From: a virus | Length of the DNA stretch: 64,000 nucleotides | Virus record (IMG/VR): IMGVR_UViG_3300045988_175656 | Strand: one strand, 5' to 3' | Part shown: positions 34,089-52,258 of the stretch, piece by piece | How positions within the stretch are numbered: the first letter of the stretch is position 1 | How the letters are laid out: the number at the start of each line of letters is the position of its first letter | Notes under the pieces: generated by a model | Told to the model about the DNA's origin: nothing | The model's input: the letters and a program-made list of their open reading frames with translations, nothing else | Databases searched by the model: none | Translations under genes and position numbers: made by a program

Positions 34089-34140
34089 TTGGAGACTATA
34101 CTTTAGAATATTACTCCTACCTCTTTATCTCTTTTTGTAT
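34089..34140 (-). ncRNA. UAUAGUCUCC-element, copy 1
   Basis: Promoter TTTG(34176-34173)-20nt-TATCTTTG(34152-34145). RNA sense reads ...GGU-AGGA-GUAAUA-UUCU-AAAGUAUAGUCUCCAA. No ORF. Confidence 0.6.
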
Positions 34141-34185
34141 AGTACAAAGATAGGGAAATTTTCGTTCCCTACCAAATTATTTTAG

Positions 34186-34407
34186 TTAATAAATGTCAAA
34201 TTTATACCCTAATTTATCTGCAAGTTTCTTTATATATTTTGCTGTTGGGTGCGGTGGATAATAGCCATGTACGGGTGTGACTGTTTTATTATGTTCATTT
34301 ACTAAACAAACTGAATAACCGCTATAATCTTCCATGAAATAACAATCTATCACATCATTTCCTTTGTATGAATATTCACTTCCTTTCACTTTTTTCAATG
34401 CTGCCAT
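34186..34407 (-). CDS. hypothetical protein
   Basis: ORF track. Confidence 0.6.
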   Translation of the reverse strand: MAALKKVKGSEYSYKGNDVIDCYFMEDYSGYSVCLVNEHNKTVTPVHGYYPPHPTAKYIKKLADKLGYKFDIY

Positions 34408-34503
34408 AATTTATTTAATTTTTAATTGTTAGTATTCTTATTTTGATATATACAAAGGTAGGTATTTTCCCGATACCTACCAAATATTTTGAGTTAATAA
34501 AAG

Positions 34504-34809
34504 TTAATCTTCTTTGTTAAATTCTTCACTATCGTATATATCACCACATATAGACCACAATACCCAAACGGATAATTCTTCTTTATTCCATTTTTGTAGC
34601 TCTGTTTTCTCATGGCAACCATATTCAAGAATGTGGTTAATTAGTCTTTCTTTTGGTATTTTATCAAATTGCTTTTTGATTTCGGGTATTTCTATCCACC
34701 TTTGACAATCTTCTTCACAATCTCCACTATGGCAGCAATTTTCTACACATTCTCTACTTAGTTCAATTTCAAAGCTGTTATCTACATAGCCATAAAATAA
34801 ATTTTCCAT
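34504..34809 (-). CDS. hypothetical Cys-rich protein (paralog of 35435..35734)
   Basis: IELSRECVENCC...WIEIPEIKKQF parallels VELPFECIKECG...WMKNEKVLKQF. Confidence 0.65.
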   Translation of the reverse strand: MENLFYGYVDNSFEIELSRECVENCCHSGDCEEDCQRWIEIPEIKKQFDKIPKERLINHILEYGCHEKTELQKWNKEELSVWVLWSICGDIYDSEEFNKED

Positions 34810-34911
34810 ATCTGTTATTTTTAATTGTTAGTACTTTAATTTTGATACAACAAAGGTAAATAAAAAAGGTGAACTATGCAAATAATTCACCTTATATTTT
34901 CTTCCTTTTAA

Positions 34912-35355
34912 CTATTTTTTAATAATCTCGTATCTATCTTTGTCCCACCTACTATTAAACCATTCATCCGCATTTTTATACAGACGTAAAGTATCAACGT
35001 TTAAGTTTCTATTAACGCATAATAGTTGGTGAATTGACTTGATAGATAAAAATTTCTTAATCATATCAACTGTTAGTGTATAATCGTCTCTATCAAGCAA
35101 ACAACACCCCGAACCGTTATTTTTTGTTGGAACATATTCAAAGCTACAACTCCATGAATAAAAGTCGTTTCTACCAATATAAAGTATTGTAGTTCCGTCT
35201 GTTACAAAAAACCACATACGATGATACATAGTATTAACTACACTTTCTTTTTCTTCTTCGGTTAATACCTTATGGAAATAAACAGTTAAACCTTCATCTA
35301 CACATTGATTTAAAAGGTTTACCAATTCTTTTTTAAATTCTTCTTTCATGCTCAT
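34912..35355 (-). CDS. hypothetical protein
   Basis: ORF track. Confidence 0.7.
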   Translation of the reverse strand: MSMKEEFKKELVNLLNQCVDEGLTVYFHKVLTEEEKESVVNTMYHRMWFFVTDGTTILYIGRNDFYSWSCSFEYVPTKNNGSGCCLLDRDDYTLTVDMIKKFLSIKSIHQLLCVNRNLNVDTLRLYKNADEWFNSRWDKDRYEIIKK

Positions 35356-35434
35356 AACTTATATTCTTTAATTGTTTATGCAAATGTAGGTATTTAATCA
35401 ATATGAACCAAATTATTTTAGTTAATAAATGTTG

Positions 35435-35734
35435 TTATATATCAGCCAATTCATCACTTACTTTAATACAACATTCGTACAATGCCCATTGAATTAATTC
35501 TCTACGTCCTAATTTTTTAACTTCTTCAAAAGATAATTCACATGGCATATCATAAACAAAAGTAGCTAATGTTTCATCTTTAATGAATTGAAATTGTTTC
35601 AATACCTTTTCATTCTTCATCCATTTTTCAACATTATCAGAATTAAATTCAATAGTACCACATTCCTTAATACATTCAAAAGGAAGTTCTACAAATATAC
35701 TATCATCTATACCAACTTTAATTAATACTTTCAT
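35435..35734 (-). CDS. hypothetical protein (paralog of 34504..34809)
   Basis: Start trimmed to MKVLIKVG (ATG 35734), which lies downstream of the TACCTTTG box encoded within the track N-terminus. Confidence 0.6.
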   Translation of the reverse strand: MKVLIKVGIDDSIFVELPFECIKECGTIEFNSDNVEKWMKNEKVLKQFQFIKDETLATFVYDMPCELSFEEVKKLGRRELIQWALYECCIKVSDELADI

Positions 35735-35868
35735 ATTGTTTAATTTATTATTAATTTTACTATTGCAAAGGTATAAATTAGTTTTCATATATGCAAATAT
35801 AACATGAATTATTTATGTTAATAGTTCTTAATTTATTTATATTTTTTAACTAAAAATTATTATATCTA

Positions 35869-35916
35869 TTGGAGACTATACTTTATATTGTTACATATAC
35901 CTCTTTGTTTTTCTTA
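35869..35916 (-). ncRNA. UAUAGUCUCC-element, copy 2
   Basis: Promoter TTTG(35953-35950)-20nt-TATCTTTG(35929-35922). RNA reads GG-UAUAU-GUAACA-AUAUA-AAGUAUAGUCUCCAA. Confidence 0.6.
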
Positions 35917-35984
35917 TAGTACAAAGATAAGAAAAAGGTATGACACTACCAAATAATATCATACCTTTAACATTATATTAACAT

Positions 35985-36209
35985 TTACTTATTTCCCACC
36001 ACTTCAATATATACATTGCATTTAGGATAGCATTTTTGTAACTTCCTTTGTGTTATTTCAGCCCTACTAAATGAATTATAATACTTTGGTGGGCGTGTGT
36101 CTGTATAAAACATGGTAGGTGGATTAAGGATAGGTTTATGTTTCCTATCCCACCTAACAAACACATAAGGAGTATAATTATAATTGACAAAAACCAAATA
36201 TTGTTTCAT
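35985..36209 (-). CDS. hypothetical protein
   Basis: ORF track. Confidence 0.6.
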   Translation of the reverse strand: MKQYLVFVNYNYTPYVFVRWDRKHKPILNPPTMFYTDTRPPKYYNSFSRAEITQRKLQKCYPKCNVYIEVVGNK

Positions 36210-36784
36210 ACTGCATAATATTTACCGTTTTCTAAAAATTCATATAAATTAGCTTCGCAAATTTCGTTTAAATCTTCTTCTGATATTTCATAAAAGAAAG
36301 CATATCCATAATTTTCAAATTCTTTACATTTAGCAAAATACCATGCTTTTACATTTTCTTCAACTTTTTGTAAAATTTGTTCATGTTTAGGATTTTCATA
36401 ATTATCCTCAATTTCTATACTAACTGTATGTGCATGGCAATAATGATAATCAAACTTTGTGAATTTAATTTTTGAAATATCGTCACCTGCAATTTCTTTT
36501 TGTCTCTTTGTCAAACCTTGTGTAAAGATTTTCCAAATACGTTCATCAATACCATAGGTAGGAATTTCACCATACATACAAAAGCCGTCTCCTTGACAAT
36601 AGTCCAAAGAGAAACTTACTTTTAAAGTTTCAATGCCATATTCAGACTTTAATTCTTCTAAACAATCTCTTTCAAATTCAGACGGTTCTAAATTATTAAG
36701 CCACCATTGTTTCACAACTTCTTTTGCTTCACTTGACAGTTCATTAAATTTGTAAACCTTAATTTCTTTAATTTCTGTTCTCAT
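36206..36784 (-). CDS. hypothetical protein
   Basis: ORF track, 192 aa. The N-terminal VYKFNELSSEAKE type is seen in plasmid and phage proteins, but I cannot name the family. Confidence 0.7.
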   Translation of the reverse strand: MRTEIKEIKVYKFNELSSEAKEVVKQWWLNNLEPSEFERDCLEELKSEYGIETLKVSFSLDYCQGDGFCMYGEIPTYGIDERIWKIFTQGLTKRQKEIAGDDISKIKFTKFDYHYCHAHTVSIEIEDNYENPKHEQILQKVEENVKAWYFAKCKEFENYGYAFFYEISEEDLNEICEANLYEFLENGKYYAV

Positions 36785-36931
36785 AACTCATATAATTTTT
36801 AATTGTTACTATCTTTATTTCTCTGTGACAAAGATAAGGCTTTTATTTGAATTGGCAAAATATATTAGAATATTTTTATGTTAATGATTATTAAATTTTT
36901 CACATTAATTAACAAATTAAAATTAAATATA

Positions 36932-36974
36932 TTGGAGACTATACTTTAAGATATTACTCTTACCTTTTTTCTTA
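36932..36974 (-). ncRNA. UAUAGUCUCC-element, copy 3
   Basis: Promoter TTTG(37011-37008)-20nt-TACCTTTG(36987-36980). RNA reads GGU-AAGA-GUAAUA-UCUU-AAAGUAUAGUCUCCAA. Confidence 0.6.
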
Positions 36975-37030
36975 TACAACAAAGGTACGAAATAAATCCG
37001 TACCTTACAAATTATTATGGTTAAAAGATG

Positions 37031-37192
37031 TTACCAAATACAATAATAATAGTTACCACTTCTCACAATCTCACTTGCTTTATCCCAACCGTAAAGTTTT
37101 TTCATACCTTTTAAACTCCCTGTCGTTGAGCAACTTGTATATCTCTTATCACTTAAATAAGATGATATTTTCTTTGTACTAATATATTTCAT
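37031..37192 (-). CDS. possible 53-aa micro-protein
   Basis: Unlisted ORF MKYISTKKISSYLSDKRYTSCSTTGSLKGMKKLYGWDKASEIVRSGNYYYCIW, starting 5 nt after the stop of 37197..37394. Confidence 0.4.
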   Translation of the reverse strand: MKYISTKKISSYLSDKRYTSCSTTGSLKGMKKLYGWDKASEIVRSGNYYYCIW

Positions 37193-37196
37193 AACT

Positions 37197-37394
37197 TTAA
37201 TATTTTTCGTTACATATATTTTCTATCTCTTTAATTATGTTTTCTGTACTTATACCCGTTAATACTGTTATATCAGATAACAATTTCATAAGTTTATTGT
37301 AGTTCCTACTACCTTTTACGGACAAGTCACCATTTTTCTTAAACATTTGACTTTTATTATATCCTAAAGTTTTTAAGAGTTTTTCTAAATCCAT
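37197..37394 (-). CDS. hypothetical protein
   Basis: ORF track, 65 aa. Confidence 0.55.
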   Translation of the reverse strand: MDLEKLLKTLGYNKSQMFKKNGDLSVKGSRNYNKLMKLLSDITVLTGISTENIIKEIENICNEKY

Positions 37395-37471
37395 ATTTTT
37401 AATTGTTATTTCTTATGATACAAAGGTAGGGAAATTTCTATTCCCTACCAAATATTTTATGTTAATAAGAA

Positions 37472-38191
37472 TTAATATTCTTCACTTGCTTTCATAATTC
37501 CTTCAAGAAGTGATATTTCCTTAATATCAAAAAGATAGTATTCGTCCTGTGTATCATACGAATAATCACAATTATTACATATTTGTCCTTTTGCGTTAAG
37601 ATAAATCATTGTATCAACATTAATATAATCTTCAAGTTCTTCAATACTAATTTCTTTGGTGTAGTCTAATGTTTTCCAACCGCCTAATTCATATCCTCTG
37701 CCCTCTGAAATGATATTACGCACATTATATTCATCATTTCTAAGTGAGAAGAAAGAAAGCATGGAAAGAAATTGAATACTTTCTTTTTGTTCTTTTGGGT
37801 ATGTGTGGTAACTATCATTTGATAATTGTATCATTGATAAACATTCATCTTTATAATTTTGATACATATACATTTCAATCAATAAATGTATAAATTCTAA
37901 TGATTGGCAAGATTTTCTACCATTAACAACTATGTAAAAATTACTTACAGATATTTTTAATCTCTTCAATTCCTCTAATATAAAACGTATTGCAGGAATA
38001 TTTAGAGTAGGTTCACCACCTGTAATTGTAAGGCTACCAATTGAACTAATATCTTGTAATGCTTTTGTAATATATGCTTTATGTATATTTCTTTTTTGTG
38101 CTTCACCTCTTAAACAATGCGCACATTTCATATTACATTTGCGTGTTACTTCAATTGCCAATTCATTTAAAATTAATTTCTTCTTTTCCAT
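37472..38191 (-). CDS. radical SAM enzyme (short, possible C-terminal twitch/SPASM-like remnant)
   Basis: CNMKCAHC (CxxxCxxC) at residues 19-26, within IEVTRKCNMKCAHCLRG. Also has the LTITGGEPTL SAM-binding motif and a C-terminal NAKGQICNNC. Confidence 0.8.
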   Translation of the reverse strand: MEKKKLILNELAIEVTRKCNMKCAHCLRGEAQKRNIHKAYITKALQDISSIGSLTITGGEPTLNIPAIRFILEELKRLKISVSNFYIVVNGRKSCQSLEFIHLLIEMYMYQNYKDECLSMIQLSNDSYHTYPKEQKESIQFLSMLSFFSLRNDEYNVRNIISEGRGYELGGWKTLDYTKEISIEELEDYINVDTMIYLNAKGQICNNCDYSYDTQDEYYLFDIKEISLLEGIMKASEEY

Positions 38192-38333
38192 AACTTATTA
38201 TCTTTAATTGTTTGATACAAAGGTATGGTTTTTATTTGAATTATGCAAGCATTTATCATATTATTTTGTGTTAATAAAAGTTAATAGATTATAGTTAAAA
38301 TTATATAAAATTAACAAAAATGCTACTGATATG

Positions 38334-38382
38334 TTGGAGACTATACTCTAATATTTTACTATTACCTATCATTTATTTCTGA
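38334..38382 (-). ncRNA. UAUAGUCUCC-element, copy 4
   Basis: Promoter TTTG(38419-38416)-20nt-TATCTTTG(38395-38388). RNA reads GGU-AAUA-GUAAAA-UAUU-AGAGUAUAGUCUCCAA. Confidence 0.6.
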
Positions 38383-38443
38383 TAATACAAAGATAAGGAT
38401 AATAAATGGAATTACCAAATTATTATCCTTATTAAATGTTAAT

Positions 38444-38701
38444 TTATTTTTTATATATGTGTTCTTCCATAATTAGGCGACCATTTAAATCGTATGTGCG
38501 TTTAATGACTTCATCACTGTGAAATATTTCAGCAATTGAAATTGCTTTATCATCACTTTTACATTTTATTTGTGTGAAGTTTTCGCATAATACTTGTGTT
38601 CTGCCCCAATTGATTAGCCCAACATATCTATTATTTGGAATAAAACCTTTAGCACGTGTTTTAATTGCATAATAAACACCTTTAAAAACTCTTTTACTCA
38701 T
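38444..38701 (-). CDS. hypothetical protein
   Basis: ORF track. Confidence 0.6.
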   Translation of the reverse strand: MSKRVFKGVYYAIKTRAKGFIPNNRYVGLINWGRTQVLCENFTQIKCKSDDKAISIAEIFHSDEVIKRTYDLNGRLIMEEHIYKK

Positions 38702-38728
38702 AACTATACATTTTTAATTGTTACAAAT

Positions 38729-38941
38729 TTACCATATTCTTATGTTATAATCATTGAAATAGTTTTCAAGTTCTTTCAAGCCCTCTAAACTATGAATACC
38801 ACCATTTTTATCTTTTACTTCAATATCAATAGTTTCGCCATAGTCATTTGTTAATGCTATTTCAGAAGTAGAGAAAACCTCTTTTACAATGTTTACTACT
38901 TCATCATTATTCTTTTTCCCTTTTACGATATTTAATTTCAT
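38729..38941 (-). CDS. hypothetical protein
   Basis: ORF track. Confidence 0.6.
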   Translation of the reverse strand: MKLNIVKGKKNNDEVVNIVKEVFSTSEIALTNDYGETIDIEVKDKNGGIHSLEGLKELENYFNDYNIRIW

Positions 38942-39083
38942 AACTTAAAACTTTTAATTGTTAATACTATATGTTCTTTTTCTATATTACAAAGATACAA
39001 TAATCATTTGATATATGAAAGTATTTTGTGTTAATGAATATAAATTAATTCTTAAAAAATGTTAACTACTACTTGCGTTGAGG

Positions 39084-39126
39084 CTTATAAAAATAGGGCT
39101 ATCTATTCATCACGAACTGATAACCC
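39084..39126 (-). terminator. intrinsic terminator after 39159..39881
   Basis: Minus sense reads GGGUUAUC-N15-GAUAGCCC (39126-39096), followed by UAUUUUUAU. Confidence 0.55.
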
Positions 39127-39158
39127 TTTCTAACAATTAAAAATATTAGTTATGAAAA

Positions 39159-39881
39159 CTAAATTATATTTTCCGTTAAGAATTTTTCCCCTTTTAAGTG
39201 TCTTATGTGCCCCTCATTATAAGTCATTGGTTTGGGATTAATAAAACAACTTTCAAAAGTAAATCTCGTATGTTTTCTATTATCTTGATTTTTATCAATG
39301 TTTTGTGTTTTAATGAATGAAGAGAAATACTGTTGAGTTAAATCATTTATTTTTACATCACCATTAAATTCCATATCAACATTACCATTTTGTGTAATAT
39401 ATTGTGGCATTCCGTTTGGTGCTTTTACCAATACACTATCTTGATTATACTTCTTACATAGATTAATTGCAAGATTTTTTAAAGCGTTAAAATCCTTTTC
39501 ATTTCCATTTCTATCGAAATTTAACACAATGTAAGAAGTTTCATATACTTGTTTTTCATTTTCAGTTCCTTTGTTTTCAATAAAACCACCAAAAACAGGT
39601 ACAAATGAAAATCCAGAATTTTTAATATCATTTAATAATTGTTTAGATAATTTATTATTGGTTTGATTATCATTTTCTCCACGAGAAGCTGATATGATTA
39701 TAAAACCGTTATTATAATGTTTACCTAACAATCTATCAACCGTCATTTCATTTAAAGGCTGTAAAGGAAATGTATTGGTATCACCTACTTCCATATATTC
39801 TTTGATAAGATTATATTGTTTAGCTAAATTAGTATTACATAACTTATCAAATTGTTCATTTATATTTTTTAAAATAGTCAT
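39159..39881 (-). CDS. hypothetical protein
   Basis: ORF track, 240 aa. Confidence 0.7.
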   Translation of the reverse strand: MTILKNINEQFDKLCNTNLAKQYNLIKEYMEVGDTNTFPLQPLNEMTVDRLLGKHYNNGFIIISASRGENDNQTNNKLSKQLLNDIKNSGFSFVPVFGGFIENKGTENEKQVYETSYIVLNFDRNGNEKDFNALKNLAINLCKKYNQDSVLVKAPNGMPQYITQNGNVDMEFNGDVKINDLTQQYFSSFIKTQNIDKNQDNRKHTRFTFESCFINPKPMTYNEGHIRHLKGEKFLTENII

Positions 39882-39910
39882 AATTTATCTAATTTTATTA
39901 TATAAATAGT

Positions 39911-39994
39911 AGCTCTGATGGGAGTCGAACCCACACGTCTATAAAGACCTCAGTGTTTGAGACTGATGCGTACTACCAATTTCGCCACAGAGCC
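39911..39994 (-). tRNA. tRNA-Leu (anticodon CAA), type II with long variable arm
   Basis: The minus sense folds as a cloverleaf: GGCTCTG-TG-GCG-AAATTGGTAGTA-CGC-A-TCAGT-CTCAAAC-ACTGA-GGTCTTTATAGACGT-GTGGG-TTCGACT-CCCAT-CAGAGCT. The anticodon CAA is at 39959-39957. The T-loop is TTCGACT. There is a 15-nt variable arm and no encoded CCA. Confidence 0.85.
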
Positions 39995-40000
39995 ATTTTA

Positions 40001-40086
40001 AATAAGGGAAGAAGCGATGATTGTATTTGCTGATTATCAATCGGATTAGACATTAAAAGTTATTAAAATGCTTATCTTCCCTTATT
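40001..40086 (-). repeat. 12-bp inverted repeat enclosing 62 nt, 6 nt upstream of the tRNA
   Basis: Arms are AATAAGGGAAGA (40001-40012) and TCTTCCCTTATT (40075-40086). There is no ORF. It is co-oriented with, and presumably co-transcribed with, the tRNA. Confidence 0.6.
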
Positions 40087-40096
40087 ATATTTTAGA

Positions 40097-40111
40097 TACT
40101 CAATTGAGTAC
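40097..40111 (-). promoter_or_regulatory. GTACTCAWWTGAGTA hairpin/palindrome, copy f
   Basis: Minus sense reads GTACTCAATTGAGTA, beginning 1 nt after the TAA of 40113..40562. Confidence 0.55.
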
Positions 40112-40112
40112 T

Positions 40113-40562
40113 TTAAATCTTTTTATGCTCATTATACTTGTTAAGTATCTGTTTTGCACGTGAAGTTGTGAAACCTTTTTCATTGTATGTTTCAGCCATA
40201 ATAGCCACACACTGATTAAAGATACTTTCAACATTGGCAGCACAAACATTTACTTTCGGTGTGGAAAGCTGTTCTTTCAACTTTTGAATTTCAAGTTTAA
40301 GCTCTTTATTTTCAAGAGACAATTCCTTGTTTTTCTTTGCCAAAAGTTGTGCATTTTCTCCGTCTGCAATGTGCGACAAGATGTTCATAATACTTTCTTT
40401 CTGTTGGATAAGACGCTTGTTAATTTCGTCTTTATTCCAAATGTTACACATTGGAAGTTTGATAACAAGGTTATCATTGTACTTAACATCTACACTGTTT
40501 CCGTTCTTTTCAACTGTAAAGAATGCGAAACTTGTCTGAAATGGAAATTTTTCTGTTGCCAT
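40113..40562 (-). CDS. hypothetical coiled-coil protein
   Basis: ORF track; LENKELKLEIQKLKEQL heptads. The plus ORFs 40284..40769 and 40327..40539 are shadows. Confidence 0.65.
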   Translation of the reverse strand: MATEKFPFQTSFAFFTVEKNGNSVDVKYNDNLVIKLPMCNIWNKDEINKRLIQQKESIMNILSHIADGENAQLLAKKNKELSLENKELKLEIQKLKEQLSTPKVNVCAANVESIFNQCVAIMAETYNEKGFTTSRAKQILNKYNEHKKI

Positions 40563-40600
40563 AATCTAATACTTTTAAAATTGTTTTTAATATATTACCT

Positions 40601-40615
40601 AACTCATTTGAGTAC
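40601..40615 (-). promoter_or_regulatory. GTACTCAWWTGAGT hairpin, copy g (inside a 5' UTR)
   Basis: Minus sense reads GTACTCAAATGAGTT. It lies between the TACCTTTG promoter (about 40640) and the ATG at 40562, so it is transcribed. Confidence 0.55.
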
Positions 40616-40672
40616 GTCTATCTCTTATTTTGATATTACAAAGGTAAGAACTTTCTCTGACATATCCAAATT

Positions 40673-40909
40673 TTATTTGTTAATTTTTTCCCAAAGTTCG
40701 TTAAAGGAATTAAACTTTATCATTTGTCCGTCTTTTTCAAAAGCAAGTGCAGTTTCTTTTCTTTCTTGATAGGTATCTCCATACCCTTGAAACGCATCCA
40801 CACATATAGAACAATTGTTATCAATTGTTAAAATGGCTCGTCCTTGTTTACCAATTGATTTCAAACCTTTTCCTTTTACGCCCTCATGTTCTATTAATAA
40901 ATTTGCCAT
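40673..40909 (-). CDS. hypothetical protein
   Basis: ORF track. Confidence 0.6.
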   Translation of the reverse strand: MANLLIEHEGVKGKGLKSIGKQGRAILTIDNNCSICVDAFQGYGDTYQERKETALAFEKDGQMIKFNSFNELWEKINK

Positions 40910-40918
40910 GATACAGTA

Positions 40919-43985: not shown

Positions 43986-44000
43986 TTATCTTTGTATATC

Positions 44001-45469: not shown

Positions 45470-45498
45470 ACTTCATAACTTTAATTTTTGATTGAAAA

Positions 45499-45534
45499 AG
45501 GGAGTACTAATAAAAAAAGTACTTCCTTTTTTAC
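45499..45534 (+). terminator. intrinsic terminator after 44555..45469
   Basis: GGAGTACT-N9-AGTACTTCC hairpin, followed by TTTTTT. Confidence 0.6.
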
Positions 45535-45552
45535 ATTTATTAACACAAAATA

Positions 45553-45584
45553 TTTGGTTCGTATTGATAAAAGCATTATCTTTG
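45553..45584 (+). promoter_or_regulatory. Bacteroidota-type promoter
   Basis: TTAACACAAAATATTTGG motif, with TTTG (45553-45556), a 20 nt spacer and TATCTTTG (45577-45584). Confidence 0.6.
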
Positions 45585-45633
45585 TCATATCAAAATAAGA
45601 GATAATAAGTTTAACAATTTAAAAACTAAAGTT

Positions 45634-45828
45634 ATGAATAGAATTAAATTTTTTGGTAGTGTTGGTATGGTAATGTTTATCATGTGGTTGTGCTTTTGGA
45701 TGTTTGGCGGTTGGTATGTGAAAGGTAGTTTTGAAACATTCTCCTATATTTGGTTAGGTGTTTGTGTGGCTGTTTTAGTCGCTGTTAATAGCAAATTAAC
45801 TAAGATACATAAAGAGATAAGCAAATAA
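45634..45828 (+). CDS. small membrane protein
   Basis: Two hydrophobic helices. Confidence 0.6.
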   Translation: MNRIKFFGSVGMVMFIMWLCFWMFGGWYVKGSFETFSYIWLGVCVAVLVAVNSKLTKIHKEISK

Positions 45829-45884
45829 GTAGATAATTCAAGGTAGGGCAAATAAATAAGCCCTACCAATAAAATATAAAAGTT

Positions 45885-46235
45885 ATGAGTAAAAAATTCA
45901 AGTTATATGCAACAATAAAAGAAAATGTAGGCTATCAGTCTAATTTGAATAATAATAGAGACAGTTATAACAATGCGCTTTTCTTACTTCGTGGAAAAGA
46001 AATTGAGATAGAGACAGACTATTTGTTTCTTAATCAGTTAAACACTGCACCAATTAAAGATATTAGTAAGAACGGTTTAAGATTATATTTTAATGATATT
46101 AAGTCTTTAAGAATAGAAAACCGTACTTTTCGCACTATTAAAATGAGAGTGAAAAAGTTTTATAAAAGTGCTTGGGATGTTGATATTAAAGAACAACAAC
46201 TTAAAGGATATAAACTTTTATTAGGAATTAATTAA
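45885..46235 (+). CDS. hypothetical protein
   Basis: ORF track. Confidence 0.65.
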   Translation: MSKKFKLYATIKENVGYQSNLNNNRDSYNNALFLLRGKEIEIETDYLFLNQLNTAPIKDISKNGLRLYFNDIKSLRIENRTFRTIKMRVKKFYKSAWDVDIKEQQLKGYKLLLGIN

Positions 46236-46292
46236 TTCTTATTAACACAAAATATTTGGTAGGTATTGAAAAAATACCTACCTTTGTTGTGT

Positions 46293-46335
46293 AAGAAAAA
46301 AGTAGGGGTAATATTCTAAAGTATAGTCTCCAACA
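46293..46335 (+). ncRNA. UAUAGUCUCC-element, copy 8
   Basis: Promoter TTTG(46255-46258)-20nt hairpin spacer-TACCTTTG(46279-46286). RNA reads AGU-AGGG-GUAAUA-UUCU-AAAGUAUAGUCUCCAA. Confidence 0.6.
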
Positions 46336-46470
46336 GGTAAAATATAAAATTGTTAATAAATGCAAAAATTTTAATATTATTTAACATAAAAAAGTATTGA
46401 AATGTTTTGGTGTATCGAATATTATTCGTACATTTGCATATCGGAAATACAGAAATAAGTTATTAACCAT

Positions 46471-46486
46471 TGTTTCACGTGGAACA
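46471..46486 (+). promoter_or_regulatory. TGTTYCACGTGGAACA palindrome, copy 2
   Basis: TGTTTCACGTGGAACA within the leader, 17 nt before the ATG at 46504. Confidence 0.55.
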
Positions 46487-46503
46487 ATTAAAAATTTAAA
46501 GTT

Positions 46504-47034
46504 ATGGGTAATGTTTATTACATGGATAAAGAAACATTTGTTTTGAAAAGCAAACAACAAATTTTGGTTTATAATTACATGATTGAAGATTTAAAAAACA
46601 TTCTTCCAATTGTGCAAAAATTTGACCAAAGGTTTTTAACCAAAAGATTAACTACTGCAATAGAAAAAGTTTTGAAACATTGCATAGTTAGTTTACACGC
46701 TGATAAAATAAAAATCAGCATACAAGGAGAGTTAAGATACGTTAAAGGTGGTGGCTATATTGAATGGGACAGTTACGATATAGATTTAGATGTTAATAGA
46801 CTTGGTTGGTTGTTAAATTCTGAAAAAAGTATTGAAAACATTCAATCGACTATTAATTACTTTGAAAAACAGATTAACGAATACCAACTATGTATCACTA
46901 ACTATGATGAATTTGTTAATAAACGTTTAGAAATTGAAAAACAAATTGAAGAATACCAAAAACTTGTGCCTTATTGTATGCGAACAGGTTTTAGTGTATA
47001 TGGTACTAAATATTATATAGATGAAATAAAATAA
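46504..47034 (+). CDS. hypothetical protein
   Basis: ORF track, 176 aa. Confidence 0.7.
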   Translation: MGNVYYMDKETFVLKSKQQILVYNYMIEDLKNILPIVQKFDQRFLTKRLTTAIEKVLKHCIVSLHADKIKISIQGELRYVKGGGYIEWDSYDIDLDVNRLGWLLNSEKSIENIQSTINYFEKQINEYQLCITNYDEFVNKRLEIEKQIEEYQKLVPYCMRTGFSVYGTKYYIDEIK

Positions 47035-47045
47035 AAGTTAAAATA

Positions 47046-47077
47046 TTTGCAAAGGTAGATTTTATTTTCTACCTTTG
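47046..47077 (+). promoter_or_regulatory. promoter with 11-bp hairpin in the spacer
   Basis: TTTG(47046-47049)-20nt-TACCTTTG(47070-47077). GCAAAGGTAGA and TCTACCTTTGC form the arms. Confidence 0.6.
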
Positions 47078-47123
47078 CATAAACAATAAAAAACTAAAGT
47101 TTTATTTTAAAGCGTTTTAAAAC

Positions 47124-47507
47124 ATGAAAAAATTATTATTTAATACATTATCAAGACAAACAAAAGAGCTTGAAAAAACGGCTAAAAATGCTATTTTAGC
47201 CTTATTAAATGAGATACCAAACAAAACATATCAGACTGATAAAATAGACGAAGAAAGAAATATAACAACCTATGATAATGAAAAATTTGCTTTTGTAGGC
47301 TGTTATATTGATAAAACAAAAGGCACATTTACATATAATCTACATGATGGGTTAAAGTTATTAGGCTATAAAATAATAAATGATAATGATATGATAAGCG
47401 AAATATTATACAATAAACTGTATGAAATAGAGCTTTTTAATATTGATAATATTCAACTATTAAACGTTATAAAATACATCAATGAGATAGAATTTTCTGA
47501 GGATTAA
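47124..47507 (+). CDS. hypothetical protein
   Basis: ORF track. Confidence 0.65.
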   Translation: MKKLLFNTLSRQTKELEKTAKNAILALLNEIPNKTYQTDKIDEERNITTYDNEKFAFVGCYIDKTKGTFTYNLHDGLKLLGYKIINDNDMISEILYNKLYEIELFNIDNIQLLNVIKYINEIEFSED

Positions 47508-47526
47508 GATTTATTAACTCAAATAA

Positions 47527-47558
47527 TTTGCAAGGTACGGATGTTCTTCGTACCTTTG
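47527..47558 (+). promoter_or_regulatory. promoter with hairpin spacer
   Basis: TTTG(47527-47530)-20nt (GGTACGgatgttctTCGTACC)-TACCTTTG(47551-47558). Confidence 0.6.
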
Positions 47559-47600
47559 TTGTATCAAAATTAAAGTACTAACAATTAAAAAATTAAAGTT

Positions 47601-47765
47601 ATGAAAAAGTTAAAATCTATTGAGCTTTACAGAAATTTTCCAGTTATAGACCAAAAACAAAATTCTAATTTTATTTTAAAATTATTTCCTTTTTTCTTTC
47701 AGAAATTAAAAAAAACAATGTGGATAGAAATACCTTTTGTTGGCGTTAAAATAGTAATTAATTAA
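47601..47765 (+). CDS. 54-aa hypothetical protein
   Basis: Unlisted ORF MKKLKSIELYRNFPVIDQKQNSNFILKLFPFFFQKLKKTMWIEIPFVGVKIVIN, with a full canonical promoter and the GTACTAACAATTAAAAAATTAAAGTT leader. Confidence 0.45.
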   Translation: MKKLKSIELYRNFPVIDQKQNSNFILKLFPFFFQKLKKTMWIEIPFVGVKIVIN

Positions 47766-47793
47766 TATTATTAACGAATAATAACATAGAATA

Positions 47794-47825
47794 TTTGGTA
47801 GGGAACGGAAATTTCCCTACCTTTG
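47794..47825 (+). promoter_or_regulatory. promoter with hairpin spacer
   Basis: TTTG(47794-47797)-20nt (GTAGGGAAcggaaaTTTCCCTAC)-TACCTTTG(47818-47825). Confidence 0.6.
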
Positions 47826-47868
47826 TATTATAAGAAATAAGAAGTACTAACAATTAAATTTTAAAGTT

Positions 47869-48084
47869 ATGGGATGTTTAAATGTTAAAAAGTATAACGC
47901 TATGCAAGCGGAACGGGAACAAGAATTTTTAAACAAGTTAGACCGTACAGGATTAACAGAAACAGATATTAAAAAAATGTGTGAAAGCTACTTTCCACGT
48001 ATTAACAAAAATTATGGCTTTGTTACGTTTGATAACAGAACTTGTGCAACTGAAATTCATTGGCACAAAAGAAAACCTTATTAA
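47869..48084 (+). CDS. hypothetical protein
   Basis: ORF track. Confidence 0.6.
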   Translation: MGCLNVKKYNAMQAEREQEFLNKLDRTGLTETDIKKMCESYFPRINKNYGFVTFDNRTCATEIHWHKRKPY

Positions 48085-48141
48085 CAACAATTAACTCAAA
48101 TAATTTGGTGGGGAAAGAAATTTCCCCTATCTTTGTAATAC

Positions 48142-48191
48142 AGAAAAGGAAACAAAGGTATAAGTAACATTATAGAGTATAGTCTCCAACA
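48142..48191 (+). ncRNA. UAUAGUCUCC-element, copy 9
   Basis: -7 box TATCTTTG (48128-48135). RNA reads GG-UAUAA-GUAACA-UUAUA-GAGUAUAGUCUCCAA. Confidence 0.6.
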
Positions 48192-48339
48192 TATTTAATA
48201 TAAAATAGTTAAAAAATACTAATTAAATTAATAATTTTTAATACAAAATAATTTGTAAAATACTTGCATAATTGAAATATTATCTATATCTTTGTATTAT
48301 CAAAATTAAGAAGATTACTAACAATTAAATTTTAAAGTT

Positions 48340-48624
48340 ATGGCAAATTTCATTTTTCTTAAAAACGACTCTTATAATAGTCCCGTAGTTGCAAAATTGG
48401 CTGTTATTGAAATAGAAGGTGACTATGATTGGTGGCACATTAAAACACGCCCTATCAAGGCTACTAAACGAAATATAGAGCTTTTAAAACTCTATGCAAG
48501 AGAGAACACAACAGATTATATGTGTTGTGAATACGATTGCACAGGTAGCACTAAAAGAACATATAAAGTAAAAGTTAAAAAAGGTAAATGTTGGTTAATT
48601 GAATATGGTAGTGTAGATTGCTAA
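48340..48624 (+). CDS. hypothetical protein
   Basis: ORF track. Confidence 0.65.
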   Translation: MANFIFLKNDSYNSPVVAKLAVIEIEGDYDWWHIKTRPIKATKRNIELLKLYARENTTDYMCCEYDCTGSTKRTYKVKVKKGKCWLIEYGSVDC

Positions 48625-48700
48625 CATTTATTAACATAAATAATTTGGTAGGTATCAGAGAAATACCTACCTTTGTTTCAAACAATTAAAAAGAATAGTT

Positions 48701-48976
48701 ATGGAAGAAAAAATTAAACAATTTGTTAAACAGCTAAATGAAAAATATCCCGAATATGTAACATCATACACACAAGGGAAAAAGTTTTACAAAATATGGA
48801 GAACATTTGGCGTGCAGAAATGTATCTATTGTTTTGTAGATATGGACGGAAATATTTACAAAGCTGCAAGTATTAACGCACCCGCAAAACATATTAGAGG
48901 GCACATTTCAGAACCTTTTAAAGACAATTGTTGCGGACGTTACGGAATTAAGTATTTAAAAGGTCCTAACTTCTAA
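48701..48976 (+). CDS. hypothetical protein
   Basis: ORF track. The FVDMDGNIYKAASINAPAKHIRG motif is of a type common in phage hypothetical proteins. Confidence 0.65.
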   Translation: MEEKIKQFVKQLNEKYPEYVTSYTQGKKFYKIWRTFGVQKCIYCFVDMDGNIYKAASINAPAKHIRGHISEPFKDNCCGRYGIKYLKGPNF

Positions 48977-48985
48977 TTAAGTTTA

Positions 48986-49101
48986 TTAACATTTGGTGAA
49001 GTGTAGTAGCCAAATGTTAATTTTTTTAATATTTTTTAACTAAAAAAATATAGATGTGTTGGAGACTATACTCTAAGATATTACTCTTACCTTTTTTATT
49101 A
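48986..49101 (-). ncRNA. UAUAGUCUCC-element, copy 10 (stand-alone unit, antisense to the plus arm)
   Basis: Leftward promoter TTTG(49138-49135)-20nt-TATCTTTG(49114-49107). RNA reads GGU-AAGA-GUAAUA-UCUU-AGAGUAUAGUCUCCAA (core from 49059). It ends at the shared 11-bp hairpin TTAACATTTGG/CCAAATGTTAA (48986-49020). Confidence 0.6.
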
Positions 49102-49273
49102 CATTACAAAGATAAGAATAATTTCTTTAAGTACCAAATATTTGATTAATTTTTATTGTTCATTAACACAATATAGTTTTAAAGTTAATTTTGTGTTAAA
49201 GATAGAAAAATACTTGTTTGGTATTGATATAATTCATACTTTTGTGCATATCAAAATTAAAAGCAATAAAGTT

Positions 49274-49546
49274 ATGAAAGCAAAAAATTACATTCCGCAA
49301 ATTTCTGTTTATTACAGTGAGAGAAACTATAATGACTATAATAACGCTATACAACAAGCTATAAAGCGTTTTAAAGAGTTTTATTCCCGTTTTGATAAAA
49401 GACTACTCACAACAAAGAAAAAAGTTAATGTGAACATAAAAGGGCACATTTTAAATGTGAATATTGACTTTAATAAAGTACATTATTCACAATGTTATGA
49501 GATAGTAAACTATAACGAAATAAAAGGGCTACAAATCAATTATTAA
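49274..49546 (+). CDS. hypothetical protein
   Basis: Start trimmed to MKAKNYIPQ (ATG 49274), which follows the ATCAAAATTAAAAGCAATAAAGTT leader. Confidence 0.6.
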   Translation: MKAKNYIPQISVYYSERNYNDYNNAIQQAIKRFKEFYSRFDKRLLTTKKKVNVNIKGHILNVNIDFNKVHYSQCYEIVNYNEIKGLQINY

Positions 49547-49550
49547 AGAT

Positions 49551-49799
49551 ATGGCACGAAATATAAGTCTTTCAACCGTAGAGAAAATTTTTAATAATTT
49601 AGGTGATGTTAAATTAGAACCTAAAGTTTATAAACAAATTGAAAAAGAATTACGATTTGAGGGGAGAGATAAAAGGTTTGATTTATTTGTTGAGGCTGGC
49701 ACAAATAAATCTATGCTCTTTAAGTTTATGAAAAAAAGATACTATGTTTACTATGATTACAGTATTAATAAGTGGAAAGCTGAATATAATATAAGATAA
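49551..49799 (+). CDS. hypothetical protein
   Basis: ORF track. Confidence 0.6.
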   Translation: MARNISLSTVEKIFNNLGDVKLEPKVYKQIEKELRFEGRDKRFDLFVEAGTNKSMLFKFMKKRYYVYYDYSINKWKAEYNIR

Positions 49800-49917
49800 A
49801 ATAATACTATGTTAATTTATAGTTAAATATAGGAAAATATTTGTTTGGTATTAATTTAATTCTTATCTTTGTACTATCAAAATTAAGGAAATTATTAACA
49901 ATTAAAAAATAAAAGTT

Positions 49918-50424
49918 ATGGCAATATTCGGAAATTTCGTAGGTAAAAAAGATTTAGAATTAACAAACGAAGAAAAAGAAATGTTTATGAATTTCTTCAA
50001 AATGAAACTTTTTAACTATCATAATTGCAATTTTGAAAAGGTATTAACAATTCAAAATGTAAAAGAAGAGTGTTATACAACTTTTACAGATTTTAAATCA
50101 TATTACTTTATTTTCAAGCCAAAAGAAAGTTTAAATGGGAGAAACGTTAAAAGAGATAGAGTTATTGATTTTTCGGGTATTTCTTTTATAATTCGCAAAG
50201 AAAGCGGTTTTTTAGAGATAAAAAATAAAGAAGAAAATATAAATACGCCCGAATTTCAATATTCTTTAAATATCCTTATTCAAGGAAAACAAATAAGGTA
50301 TAAATGTAGAAATATAGAAAGTATTTCTTTAAAAAATTCGTTTCAATTTGGTACTGAATTAAGCGATTTCGATTTTTCAGCTACTTTCTATGACTTATAT
50401 AGAACACTTTATGGCTTATATTAA
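49918..50424 (+). CDS. hypothetical protein
   Basis: ORF track, 168 aa. Confidence 0.7.
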   Translation: MAIFGNFVGKKDLELTNEEKEMFMNFFKMKLFNYHNCNFEKVLTIQNVKEECYTTFTDFKSYYFIFKPKESLNGRNVKRDRVIDFSGISFIIRKESGFLEIKNKEENINTPEFQYSLNILIQGKQIRYKCRNIESISLKNSFQFGTELSDFDFSATFYDLYRTLYGLY

Positions 50425-50441
50425 TTAAAAATAAAATAGTT

Positions 50442-50636
50442 ATGAAAGAAAAATATTTTATAGTTGTAAACGAAACAAAGAAAGAAATATACTTTGCGTC
50501 TAAAAATCAATTCAGAGCACAACATTTTACAAAATTCATTTACCAAAAATATGATAAACATGTTTCCTGTGTGCCACGTTATTTGACGCAAAAAGAAATT
50601 GAAATGTATAAAGATATAATCAGTAAGAGAGGTTAA
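50442..50636 (+). CDS. hypothetical protein
   Basis: ORF track. Confidence 0.6.
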   Translation: MKEKYFIVVNETKKEIYFASKNQFRAQHFTKFIYQKYDKHVSCVPRYLTQKEIEMYKDIISKRG

Positions 50637-50646
50637 AATAAATAAA

Positions 50647-50761
50647 ATGTTAAGAATTTGACTGTTCTTAACATTTTTTAACTTATTTTTATATATAAAA
50701 AATAAAGCATAACGGAGACTATACTTTAGAATATTACTTCTACTTTTTCCCCCTTTTGGAA
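50647..50761 (-). ncRNA. UAUAGUCUCC-element, copy 11 (stand-alone unit of about 115 nt)
   Basis: Leftward promoter TTTG(50798-50795)-20nt-TATCTTTG(50774-50767). RNA reads AGU-AGAA-GUAAUA-UUCU-AAAGUAUAGUCUCCGU (core from 50713). A bidirectional terminator hairpin, ATGTTAAGAA/TTCTTAACAT, lies at 50647-50674. Confidence 0.6.
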
Positions 50762-50931
50762 CACTACAAAGATAAGAAGAATATTTGAAACTAACAAATT
50801 TATTCCAATGATTAACATTTAATTAACTCTTAAAACGTATTGTGTTAATCAATATTAATAAATCACGTTTTATTTGGTAGATATAAAATTAATTCATATA
50901 TTTGCAATATCAAAATTAAAACAAAGAAGTT

Positions 50932-51402
50932 ATGGAAAAGAATTTAGAGTATTACAGAGAACAATGTCAAGAAATTGCAAACATGATTGCAAATGAAGTT
51001 ACGGACGCAAAAAGTGTTAAAGTTGATTGTGGCGGCTTTTGTCCTTACTTGTGCTTTATTAGAATAGACGCACTTGACAAAAAAGATTATATAAATAATA
51101 TATCAAATAATAGTATCTTTATAGATATTAAAATAGACTTTCAAGAAAATAAATTTGAACTGTTTAGAGATGGACACATTTACCTATCACCAAAGGATAA
51201 AAAAACACCACAATTTAAATATTTAGCTATGCGTGGTATGATTAATATTGCAGAAGAAAAAGGAGTTAAAAAAATGCGTAAAACAAAGCATAAAGACAAT
51301 AAAACAACCGCTAATAAAATAGCTCTTTACTTCAATGAAGTTATGAAAGCTGTAAAAGAATATACAGGCGGTTATCCTTACAGACAAGGAATCGAAGAGT
51401 AA
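50932..51402 (+). CDS. hypothetical protein
   Basis: ORF track, 156 aa. Confidence 0.7.
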   Translation: MEKNLEYYREQCQEIANMIANEVTDAKSVKVDCGGFCPYLCFIRIDALDKKDYINNISNNSIFIDIKIDFQENKFELFRDGHIYLSPKDKKTPQFKYLAMRGMINIAEEKGVKKMRKTKHKDNKTTANKIALYFNEVMKAVKEYTGGYPYRQGIEE

Positions 51403-51483
51403 TTAACATTTATTAATACAAAAAATTTGGTAGGAATGAAATAATTTCCTACCTTTGTATCAAACAATTAAAGATAACAAGTT

Positions 51484-51702
51484 ATGGATAAAGAAAAAAT
51501 TATTAATAGTATTTGTATAGCTTGCAGAGCTACACAAGGCGGTACTTTAAAGTTTGGTACAGGCGGTTTTGTAGATTTTTCTGTAAGTTGGGATTATCAA
51601 TGTAATTTTGACATTTTTAATCTTAAAACAAAAAAACATCACTTTTGTAGCACTTTAGGCACAGCCGTTGAAATTGTTGAAAAATTATTAACAGAAATAT
51701 AA
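51484..51702 (+). CDS. hypothetical protein
   Basis: ORF track. Confidence 0.6.
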   Translation: MDKEKIINSICIACRATQGGTLKFGTGGFVDFSVSWDYQCNFDIFNLKTKKHHFCSTLGTAVEIVEKLLTEI

Positions 51703-51721
51703 CATTTATTAACTCTAAAAA

Positions 51722-51753
51722 TTTGGTGATATGAGATAAAAGTCGTACATTTG
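51722..51753 (+). promoter_or_regulatory. Bacteroidota-type promoter driving an ORF-less unit
   Basis: TTTG(51722-51725)-20nt-TACATTTG(51746-51753). Confidence 0.6.
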
Positions 51754-51759
51754 TAATAA

Positions 51760-52176
51760 AGAAATACAACTAACAGAAAAAGAGATTAAGTATTAATTTT
51801 AATAATGTCTAAAAATGGAAACAAATAAGCCACCGCCCTAAAAAGGTTATTTAAATTTGATAATATAAGATAGAATAATTTAATAGCTACGAAAACTAAC
51901 AAGGTACGCAAGTTTAAAGAGTAAAAAGTTTTAGAACGTACTGCATTAAGCGAAAAAGCTATGCCACCACAGTATTAAGTTTATAACATTATAATATATA
52001 GAGTAATTTAATTTATATTTAATTTTAACTTTCCGCTGTTTGCGGACTAAAAACATAAGTATGCACTTAATTAGAGATAAGACCATATAAAAATTATATG
52101 TAATATAGAATGAATTTATAGATTAAGAAAATAAGGCAAAAGCTCTGATAATACCGTCATTTATCAGAGCTTTTTT
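51760..52176 (+). ncRNA. candidate long ncRNA of about 415 nt
   Basis: A canonical promoter precedes it and no ORF exceeds about 9 codons. It has locally GC-richer patches and nested helices: ATAGCT(51883-88)/AGCTAT(51957-62) encloses GTACG(51904-08)/CGTAC(51937-41). A CCGC-TGTT-GCGG hairpin is also present. It ends at the strong terminator AGCTCTGATAA-N8-TTATCAGAGCT plus T6 (52141-52176). Confidence 0.45.
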
Positions 52177-52258
52177 AATTACAGTTTTTAACATTTTTTA
52201 TAAGTACGTGACGGAGACTATACTTTAAAGTTTTAACCTTACCTCTTTGTTTTTCTTA
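52135..52258 (-). ncRNA. UAUAGUCUCC-element, copy 12 (stand-alone unit of about 120 nt)
   Basis: Leftward promoter TTTG(52295-52292)-20nt-TATCTTTG(52271-52264). RNA reads GGU-AAGG-UUAAAA-CUUU-AAAGUAUAGUCUCCGU (core from 52212). It converges on the same terminator hairpin, 52141-52170. Confidence 0.6.

Follow-up and report, generated by a model that had tools for sequence, protein, structure and literature searches.

An apparently undescribed family of promoter-driven hairpin-and-box RNA units repeated across large phage genomes

Why would a phage carry a dozen copies of one short element that has its own promoter and contains no open reading frame (ORF)? The question is raised by a 64,000-nucleotide (nt) stretch of viral DNA from the IMG/VR record IMGVR_UViG_3300045988_175656, referred to here as the window, in which an original prediction made from the letters alone had singled out twelve such units between positions 34,089 and 52,258. 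Jumbo phages that infect gut Bacteroidales are abundant and uncultured, and their genomes have barely been annotated. We report that the units belong to a real, strongly supported and apparently undescribed phage RNA family, in which a covarying hairpin is followed by a conserved single-stranded box. Judged from their sequence, the twelve elements appear to be paralogous, independently promoted, non-coding mini-genes of a Bacteroidales-infecting jumbo phage.

Twelve copies of one rigid module

The 12-mer AGTATAGTCTCC, which forms the tail of each unit and which we term the box, occurs in 12 exact copies in the window, against 0.14 expected from dinucleotide-preserving shuffles, and no further copy appears there at one mismatch. 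Copies lie on the minus strand at 34091, 35871, 36934, 38336, 42073, 42985, 49061, 50714 and 52213, and on the plus strand at 44031, 46320 and 48176. A covariance model built from the wider family and run on the 64 kb recovers exactly 12 units, at 62–80 bits; the next match scores 29.8 bits and corresponds to an ordinary promoter read in reverse complement. The twelve-copy family proposed in the original prediction is thus confirmed, with the copies and their strands correctly assigned and their positions displaced by 0–2 nt.

All 12 units have the same order of parts: a promoter, a purine-rich leader, R-G, a 5-bp stem closed by a hexaloop, one purine and the 12-mer tail, which starts 33–42 nt past the −7 box. 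The promoter, TTTG-N20-TAnnTTTG, had been described as complete in every copy; it is so at 11 of the 12 units, the unit at 42073 having CTTG. The stem, given earlier as 4–5 bp, is 5 bp in each of the 12 copies, the U of the preceding ‘(G/A)GU’ being its first base, and its nine different sequences are all paired, as had been noted. The loop variants (GUAAUA, GUAACA, GUAAAA and UUAAAA) are those originally listed, and the description of the cores as ORF-less holds, in that none of the 12 contains an ATG-initiated ORF. What had been treated as isolated elements are instead parts of a rigid module with a GTTAAW box and usually also a second promoter: in the window, GTTAAW stands exactly at +20 after the tail in 11 of the 12 copies, and a second promoter lies downstream of seven. 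Four copies (42985, 49061, 50714 and 52213) are antisense to neighbouring genes.

The hairpin is selected as RNA

We anchored units on G-18 and U-11, chose 70 diverse ones and analysed the stem in their gapless alignment. Over the five stem pairs, pairing stands at 99.7%, and 117 cells have changed on both sides; none of 500 column shuffles equals this, and when the partner is slid by 1–3 columns, pairing reaches at most 61%. All five pairs are intact in 245 of 258 distinct anchored tails, while in the remainder the 12-mer occurs by chance. An independent prediction by RNAalifold gives this helix and no other, and a mutual-information scan of positions −40 to +60 revealed no other covarying pairs. 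Wobble pairs in the 70 units are strand specific: on the promoter-sense strand, there are 13 G:U or U:G pairs against a single A:C, and the hairpin is therefore selected on that strand, as RNA. The earlier proposal of a covarying folded RNA beside a conserved single-stranded tail now stands on firmer ground, with 70 diverse units, strand-specific G:U pairs and a universal promoter behind it. Stem changes in homologous phages keep pairing, as it required, and its view that a plain duplex operator would not fit agrees with the compensatory stems and the sense-strand bias of the G:U pairs.

Loop and box are kept across at least 250 units while stems, leaders and flanks diverge. Within the leader, A-22, A-20, G-19 and G-18 are conserved family-wide. 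The loop consensus is G-U-R-A-N-A, which fits its earlier description as GNRA-like and boxB-like, with R at −1, and the box consensus is AGUAU(A/G)(G/A/U)U(C/U)UCC, followed by a semi-conserved NWCMCR. The tail, first called invariant, is so within this genome; across the family, positions 6, 7 and 9 vary. The changes allowed are mostly A6→G and C9→U, both of which would keep pairing to a fixed partner, and position 7 is free. The box has no intramolecular partner. Neither a pseudoknot between loop and downstream sequence nor a closing helix between leader and downstream sequence shows general covariation, and a possible GGUG:CACC pairing occurs in one subfamily only. Taken on their sequence, the conserved loop and the adjoining unpaired box look like a recognition surface.

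A family found in large gut and rumen phages

Pattern scans of IMG/VR and of human-gut and rumen-type metagenomes yielded at least 250 distinct units. Among the matches listed, these lie in phage contigs of 215–400 kb from human gut and rumen, and several phages carry about 9–12 units per genome. In deposited phages, where near and distant DNA matches were sought, no units were found. Cellular genomes, of which 185,579 were scanned at one per prokaryotic species, matched the unit pattern no more often than expected by chance, with one exception: an apparently mis-binned Paludibacteraceae rumen contig holds four units, two of them exact-pattern matches. A literature search for the 12-mer returned no report of it. 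A gathering-threshold scan of the whole window against Rfam 15 detected tRNA only, and a permissive scan of 33.9–38.5 kb (E ≤ 10) gave only noise on the units, with SpF51 scoring 18 bits against a gathering score of 50; the original failure to recognize any known RNA family is thus borne out for Rfam 15.

In related phages, units also occur in tandem, 167 nt apart and each with its own promoter (locus L140, 3700–4060, ODIN01000001.1; similar loci are L143, L173, L204 and L218). The leaders in these tandem loci hold a partial second copy of the box (GGUGAGUCUCC).

Units have their own promoter and a phased downstream context

A −7 box lies 29–59 nt upstream of the tail in 194 of 194 units examined. 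GTTAA(A/T) follows exactly 20 nt past the box in about 86% of those units that were not selected for it, and a second promoter in the same orientation lies downstream of 69% of 252 units. The −33 element of this second promoter is found 69–75 nt past the box, with minor classes at 84–87 and 98–109 nt, so that the spacing classes are steps of about one helical turn (~11 nt).

In a gene-context set of 167 non-redundant units, 73% are followed within 330 nt by a co-oriented ORF whose own −7 box lies between unit and ATG; 19% lack a co-oriented ORF, and the remaining 8% proved on inspection to be artefacts or to have the promoter further off (two cases drive tRNA). Since the next ORFs have their own −7 box and the exceptions are artefacts or have a more distant promoter, no gene convincingly depends on the unit’s own promoter. 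At L170 and L175 (ODIN01000001.1 / ERZ772979 contigs), the second promoter drives a tRNA-like gene (T-loop GGTTCGAATC) in place of an ORF, about 120–230 nt past the unit. The four antisense units of the window run into the terminators of convergent genes, and the plus-strand genes beside them have their own divergent promoters; we therefore rejected the idea that these genes are driven by the reverse complement of the unit.

In most cases, the GTTAA at +20 has a predicted pairing partner in a TTAAC further downstream. One subfamily has a tight hairpin, GUGUUAAA-aga-UUUAACAC, after the box and A8 before it, with some covarying flank pairs; in the tandem-unit loci, this hairpin together with A8 would read as an intrinsic terminator on the opposite strand. 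The GTTAA/TTAAC part may work as RNA or as DNA, since (G)TTAA(C) is also a general promoter-upstream box.

Small RNAs acting in trans as the favoured reading

What might such a module do? We favour, tentatively and at somewhat less than an even chance, the reading that the units are independent early small-RNA (sRNA) genes whose hairpin and single-stranded box would be recognized in trans by a conserved partner. Transcription by host RNA polymerase, carrying the housekeeping sigma factor, should start at the TTTG-N20-TAnnTTTG promoter, and the first 45–75 nt of the transcript would comprise the purine-rich leader, G-G, the 5-bp hairpin with its G-U-R-A-N-A loop, one purine, the box AGUAU(A/G)N-U(C/U)UCC and NWCMCR. 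The module would act in trans, whatever lies downstream, and its product would be a high-copy early RNA, either on its own or forming the 5′ end of longer transcripts. The hairpin would be a protein handle and the single-stranded box the surface (a seed or a protein site) recognized by a conserved partner that belongs to the core machinery of the host or to the core of the phage, the multiple copies providing dosage early in infection. GTTAAW, exactly 20 bp further on, may determine where the functional RNA ends on its 3′ side, for example by stalling polymerase. We favour this reading because the module is the only universally conserved transcribed part and because the units take any orientation to their neighbours, are duplicated in tandem and are never the sole promoter of a gene.

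A precedent in the host genus is FopS, with 12–15 sibling sRNAs made from the same promoter type (PMC11697453). Like the units, the FopS/GibS RNAs of Bacteroides (12–15 copies, canonical sigma-ABfr promoters, bound by RbpB) are multicopy paralogous non-coding RNAs with the same promoter type and host group and a conserved single-stranded seed. The FopS seed (GUGUUUUUCAUAGUAUU...), however, has no sequence relation to the units, and FopS RNAs are chromosomal, longer and terminated, whereas the units are phage-only and mostly without terminators. Membership of the units in FopS/GibS was rejected, as the module bears no relation to GUGUUUUUCAUAGUAUUAGAUUUAAGGUUAACAAA, the seed published as a 70% consensus, and the unit pattern is absent from Bacteroides genomes.

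Several observations weigh against an RNA that acts purely in trans. All 194 units examined have the promoter of their own that a canonical terminated sRNA gene would have, but only 6 of 99 non-redundant units have a forward intrinsic (Rho-independent) terminator of their own within 70 nt, and four window copies borrow those of convergent genes; most transcripts should therefore read on unless stopped otherwise. The fixed 20-nt spacing of GTTAAW and the ~11-nt phasing point to a co-transcriptional or DNA-coupled step, for which a purely trans-acting RNA has no need. Box-complementary sites are not enriched in the translation-initiation regions of the phage, which led us to reject an anti-Shine–Dalgarno-like seed directed at its Shine–Dalgarno-bearing genes, and no complementary partner was found elsewhere in 0.9 Mb of related phage loci. 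Host rpsU (bS21) was likewise rejected as a target, its leader in Bacteroides having neither a Shine–Dalgarno sequence nor a complement, and the Bacteroidales rrn leader with the 5′ half of 16S showed no complementarity beyond that of shuffles. No partner protein was found, nearly all of the 142 window ORFs being without a family match. We also considered the 20-nt segment as a guide or spacer; it gave no meaningful matches in the window, and its first 6 nt are semi-conserved.

Alternatives acting on the transcribing polymerase or on DNA

A close rival, which we consider only somewhat less probable, is a cis-acting leader of the nut, put or LoaP type, in which the nascent hairpin and box would recruit a phage or host factor to their own polymerase; the polymerase would then resist the region’s many terminators, with GTTAAW as a boxC-like or pause element. 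In lambda and P22, boxB has a 5-bp stem and a GNRA-like loop, and the unit hairpin, promoter-proximal in all units with its covarying 5-bp stem and G-U-R-A-N-A loop 29–59 nt from the −7 box, resembles it and likewise sits beside a conserved single-stranded box of about 12 nt. The succession of hairpin, box, fixed spacer and third element also mirrors that of rrn boxB-boxA-(18–19 nt)-boxC (PMC10250234), the spacer of the units being 20 nt, and LoaP depends on a small hairpin in the leader (PMC12691694). Between most units and the next gene there is no terminator, nearly every gene in the region ends in a terminator hairpin, and 73% of units are co-oriented with the next ORF. Yet that ORF always has an intervening promoter, every downstream gene keeping its own, and convergent genes face a third of the units in the window and about 19% of those across the family. 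One site per transcription direction would suffice for such a role, and nut/rrn systems have two copies, whereas these phages have 9–12 per genome (12 in this one) as well as tandem sites. The 3′ part of the box, GUCUCC-AACA, is partly like the Bacteroidales rrn boxA candidate GAUCUUUGAACA, but it shares only 7 of 11 positions with it, with one gap and no U-run; the box lacks the U residues critical to boxA and does not match the gamma-proteobacterial consensus GYTCTTTAANA, so that a canonical boxA was rejected. In Escherichia coli, a T6C-type boxA change is inactivating (PMC5725501). Unlike boxC, GTTAAW recurs in this phage as a DNA box upstream of promoters in general. The 64 kb showed no ORF resembling N, Q, NusG or LoaP, and evidence of N-like or Nus-recruiting function was not found. 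The LoaP hairpin of the dfn and mln leaders of Bacillus velezensis, which resembles the units as a small leader RNA hairpin with a conserved loop and is required by a protein acting on elongating polymerase, differs in its loop (UNCG as against GURANA) and in standing once per long operon, with a leader terminator. The reference for the host boxA was a ‘viral’ contig (L286, 11240–11345, IMGVR_UViG_3300029513_000217) that has the start of a Bacteroidales rRNA operon, with GAUCUUUGAACA about 45 nt past the last of three tandem host promoters; it is probably host DNA or a prophage flank.

The rigid 20-nt spacing, unexplained by the trans or the cis model alone, would be accounted for by a polymerase-footprint ruler, since the distance from hairpin to box end (12–13 nt) and the position of GTTAAW about 20 bp ahead both match polymerase footprints. 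The module and the DNA box 20 bp downstream might thus form a programmed stop for host RNA polymerase, at which a factor on the (G)TTAA(C) boxes, present at nearly all promoters of this phage, would stall or release the enzyme just past the invariant box; we think this unlikely, with a small but appreciable chance of being right. If true, it would lead to terminator-less RNAs of about 60 nt ending in the box, as ribonucleoprotein (RNP) cofactors or primers, or to poised polymerases later reprogrammed by a phage factor, and, in Bacteroidota, would be a novel means by which a phage produces or uses RNA. We see a slim chance that the hairpin and box instead form an RNA processing or stability signal, the site at which a sequence-specific endoribonuclease of host or phage would cut or protect read-through and promoter-1 transcripts. 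The model for such a role is provided by the RNase III sites of T7 early RNA. The units are intergenic, one between many gene cassettes, they lack terminators of their own, and a hairpin with a conserved loop and adjacent single-stranded sequence suggests protein recognition; but a pure processing site would not need the promoter that each unit always has, only 12 of about 59 promoter cassettes carry the module, and antisense-oriented copies would process nothing useful.

It is quite improbable, in our view, that the units are anti-defence decoys, mimicking a host RNA (a Racr-like CRISPR repeat, a toxin–antitoxin RNA or a tRNA anticodon arm) to titrate an immune nuclease. They are multicopy and presumably early, and they lie among likely anti-defence genes (S-adenosylmethionine (SAM) lyase, GmrSD-N-like); AGUCUCCAACAC, the end of the unit box with its flank, is identical at 11 of 13 positions to the anticodon arm AGUCUCAAACAC of the phage tRNA-Leu(CAA). 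This likeness is probably due to chance (rough p ~0.1), and anticodon-arm mimicry was rejected because no anticodon stem can form in the stretch and its ‘anticodon’ positions vary. The comparison with CRISPR repeats that had been suggested earlier was negative for exact matches: at CRISPR-like spacing (42–72-nt period), the 12-mer formed no array in the one-per-species set of 185,579 GTDB genomes, in which the unit pattern itself occurs at chance level. Solitary repeat units that serve phages as RNA anti-CRISPRs are, like ours, promoter-driven and ORF-less, with a hairpin and a conserved flank, but they number one or few as against 9–12, and the units have no matching CRISPR repeat array and, unlike repeats, have stems that differ between copies. 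Universal conservation across the clade favours a core partner over a patchy defence system. Very improbable, finally, is a site that acts as DNA. On this view, the 12-mer, together with GTTAA at a distance of 20 bp, would serve as an operator or stoperator, would form a promoter, on one strand or the other, for a phage polymerase or sigma factor, or would be targeted by a nuclease or recombinase. The rigid 20-bp spacing to GTTAAW, the phasing of the next promoter in ~11-bp steps, the TTAAC boxes at fixed positions upstream of most promoters, which imply a DNA-binding factor, and a nearby HNH endonuclease gene are all in its favour. Recognition of duplex DNA, however, does not explain a stem that is free in sequence yet keeps its pairing through compensatory change, nor wobble pairs confined to the sense strand (13 against 1), nor the host-type promoter that stands upstream in fixed orientation in all units; a duplex operator or stoperator was rejected on these stem features. 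Transcription from the other strand would, at most copies, run antisense to genes, and an opposite-strand promoter or T7-like reading of GGAGACTATACT was rejected on gene orientation, the universal sense promoter and the strand-specific G:U pairs. Counts of GTCTC are ordinary, and a restriction-site explanation was rejected as well.

The individual units and their neighbours

Unit 1 (34065–34176, minus strand; 73.5 bits) has its −33 element at 34173–34176, −7 box at 34145–34152, hairpin at 34104–34119, tail at 34091–34102 and GTTAAT at 34066–34071. Directly downstream of it lies an AT-rich, ORF-free region of 820–850 nt (33242–34064). It is crowded with GTTAA/TTAAC boxes and small palindromes, is separated by some 9 kb from the strand switch and GC-skew minimum (~42–43 kb), and could be an origin or a regulatory region. 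The next four units are also on the minus strand. Unit 2 (35845–35953; 64.7 bits) has the hairpin UAUAU/AUAUA at 35884–35899, its tail at 35871–35882 and GTTAAA at +20, and its second promoter (−7 box end 35766) serves the gene at 35435–35788. In Unit 3 (36908–37011; hairpin UAAGA/UCUUA, tail 36934–36945, GTTAAT at +20; 73.2 bits), the promoter overlaps the terminator hairpin of the upstream gene, and the second promoter (−7 box end 36829) serves the gene at 36206–36784. The second promoter of Unit 4 (38310–38419; hairpin UAAUA/UAUUA, tail 38336–38347, GTTAAT at +20; 70.7 bits), 86 nt past the tail, serves the radical-SAM gene at 37472–38191. Unit 5 (42047–42151; hairpin UAGUA/UACUA, tail 42073–42084, GTTAAT at +20; 72.2 bits), the copy with CTTG at −33, is followed by a degenerate second promoter and then the gene at 41168–41821.

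On the plus strand, the promoter of Unit 7 (43963–44068; hairpin UAAUA/UAUUA, tail 44031–44042, GTTAAT at +20; 66.5 bits) overlaps a terminator, and a second promoter with its −33 at offset 73–74 serves the gene at 44177–44428. Unit 8 (46255–46357; tail 46320–46331, GTTAAT at +20; 70.1 bits) has two G:U pairs in its hairpin, UAGGG/UUCUA, and a second promoter (−7 box end 46436) serving the gene at 46504–47034. For Unit 9 (48104–48213; hairpin UAUAA/UUAUA, tail 48176–48187, GTTAAA at +20; 72.5 bits), the gene served by the second promoter, 75 nt past the tail, is at 48340–48624.

The four remaining units are on the minus strand. Unit 6 (42959–43066; tail 42985–42996, GTTAAA at +20; 68 bits), antisense to the flanking plus-strand genes, runs into the terminator hairpin of the gene at 42604–42867, and its promoter is divergent from that of the gene at 43127–43921. 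Unit 10 (49035–49138; tail 49061–49072, GTTAAA at +20; 80 bits), also antisense to flanking plus-strand genes, runs into the terminator of the gene at 48701–48976 and stands back-to-back with the promoter of the gene starting at 49274. Unit 11 (50677–50798; antisense, tail 50714–50725; 62.5 bits) is the only window copy with TATAAA in place of GTTAAW at +20, its GTTAAA being at +31; its tail can pair with +5 to +12, giving a hairpin followed by a U-run, and a strong bidirectional terminator lies 36–70 nt past the tail. Unit 12 (52187–52295; antisense, hairpin UAAGG/CUUUA with the loop UUAAAA, tail 52213–52224, GTTAAA at +20; 77.9 bits) is followed 41 nt past its tail by a strong bidirectional terminator (−13.4 kcal/mol), and its promoter is divergent from that of the plus-strand gene at 52429–52869.

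Genes, promoters and cassettes of the window

The window is 25% G+C and uses the standard code, which fits best; an alternative genetic code behind the short ORFs was rejected. About 142 small ORFs are packed into it, on the minus strand over the first 42 kb or so and mainly on the plus strand after that, together with one tRNA-Leu(CAA) at 39909–39994 (minus strand). Six of the 142 ORFs have recognizable domains: SAM lyase, radical SAM, GmrSD-N-like, HNH endonuclease, DUF7717 and KH/uS3-N-terminal-like. Set among ORFans, likely host-takeover or anti-defence genes encode the SAM lyase (39159–39881, minus), the radical-SAM protein (37472–38191, minus), the GmrSD-N-terminal-like protein (11933–12790, minus) and the 625-amino acid HNH endonuclease (54852–56729, plus). 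The KH/uS3-like ORF (26105–26587, minus; about 135–160 amino acids) has a type-II KH domain with the GxxG motif GRGG and is closest to the N-terminal half of ribosomal protein uS3 (PDB matches to E = 2e-9); it is predicted to encode a single-stranded-RNA-binding protein or a ribosomal-protein mimic. As the only candidate RNA binder in the window, it is at most a weak lead as a partner of the units.

Strict matches to the Bacteroidota housekeeping promoter number about 59 in the window, essentially one per gene, and the 12 units use this ordinary gene promoter type, with the hairpin-box module replacing the coding region. Nearly all of these promoters bear an additional box upstream: TTAAC stands exactly 8 nt before the −33 TTTG in 36 of the 59 promoters and at 18–19 or 29 nt in others. 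These positions are helically phased, often with a further TTAAT about 11 nt upstream (for example, at 44440–44488, 46240–46286 and 53655–53700). This arrangement suggests that a DNA-binding factor, phage- or host-encoded, marks phage promoters. The terminator hairpin of the upstream gene often lies inside the 20-nt spacer of the next promoter, its U-run forming the −7 box (for example, at 34422–34453, 37390–37421, 46255–46286 and 47794–47825), and paralogous terminator-promoter cassettes share 120–270 nt. Promoter-early stem-loop (PeSL) cassettes of T4-type phages are similar in being repeated terminator-plus-promoter cassettes that flank small early genes, but they have no conserved transcribed RNA module, whereas here 12 of about 59 cassettes carry the hairpin-box module.

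Two classes of gene leader can be distinguished. Genes at 34–54 kb (34400–54300) share (T)AACAATTAAAAAT ... AGTTATG, and several genes at 5–18 kb (within 1–33300) have a Shine–Dalgarno-like AAGGAGA 7–9 nt before the ATG. Shine–Dalgarno-like sequences are unusual for Bacteroidota.

Implications

A covariation-supported family with hundreds of members and a near-invariant box is a rare, directly testable handle on host takeover in Bacteroidales, whose transcription and translation signals differ from those of model bacteria. At 50 nt, the module lends itself to pull-downs, reporter assays and synthetic use, and the conserved box offers a simple metagenome marker for this phage clade. Any of the mechanisms, whether sibling sRNAs, an RNP or decoy, or nut-like reprogramming of polymerase, would be new biology for Bacteroidota.

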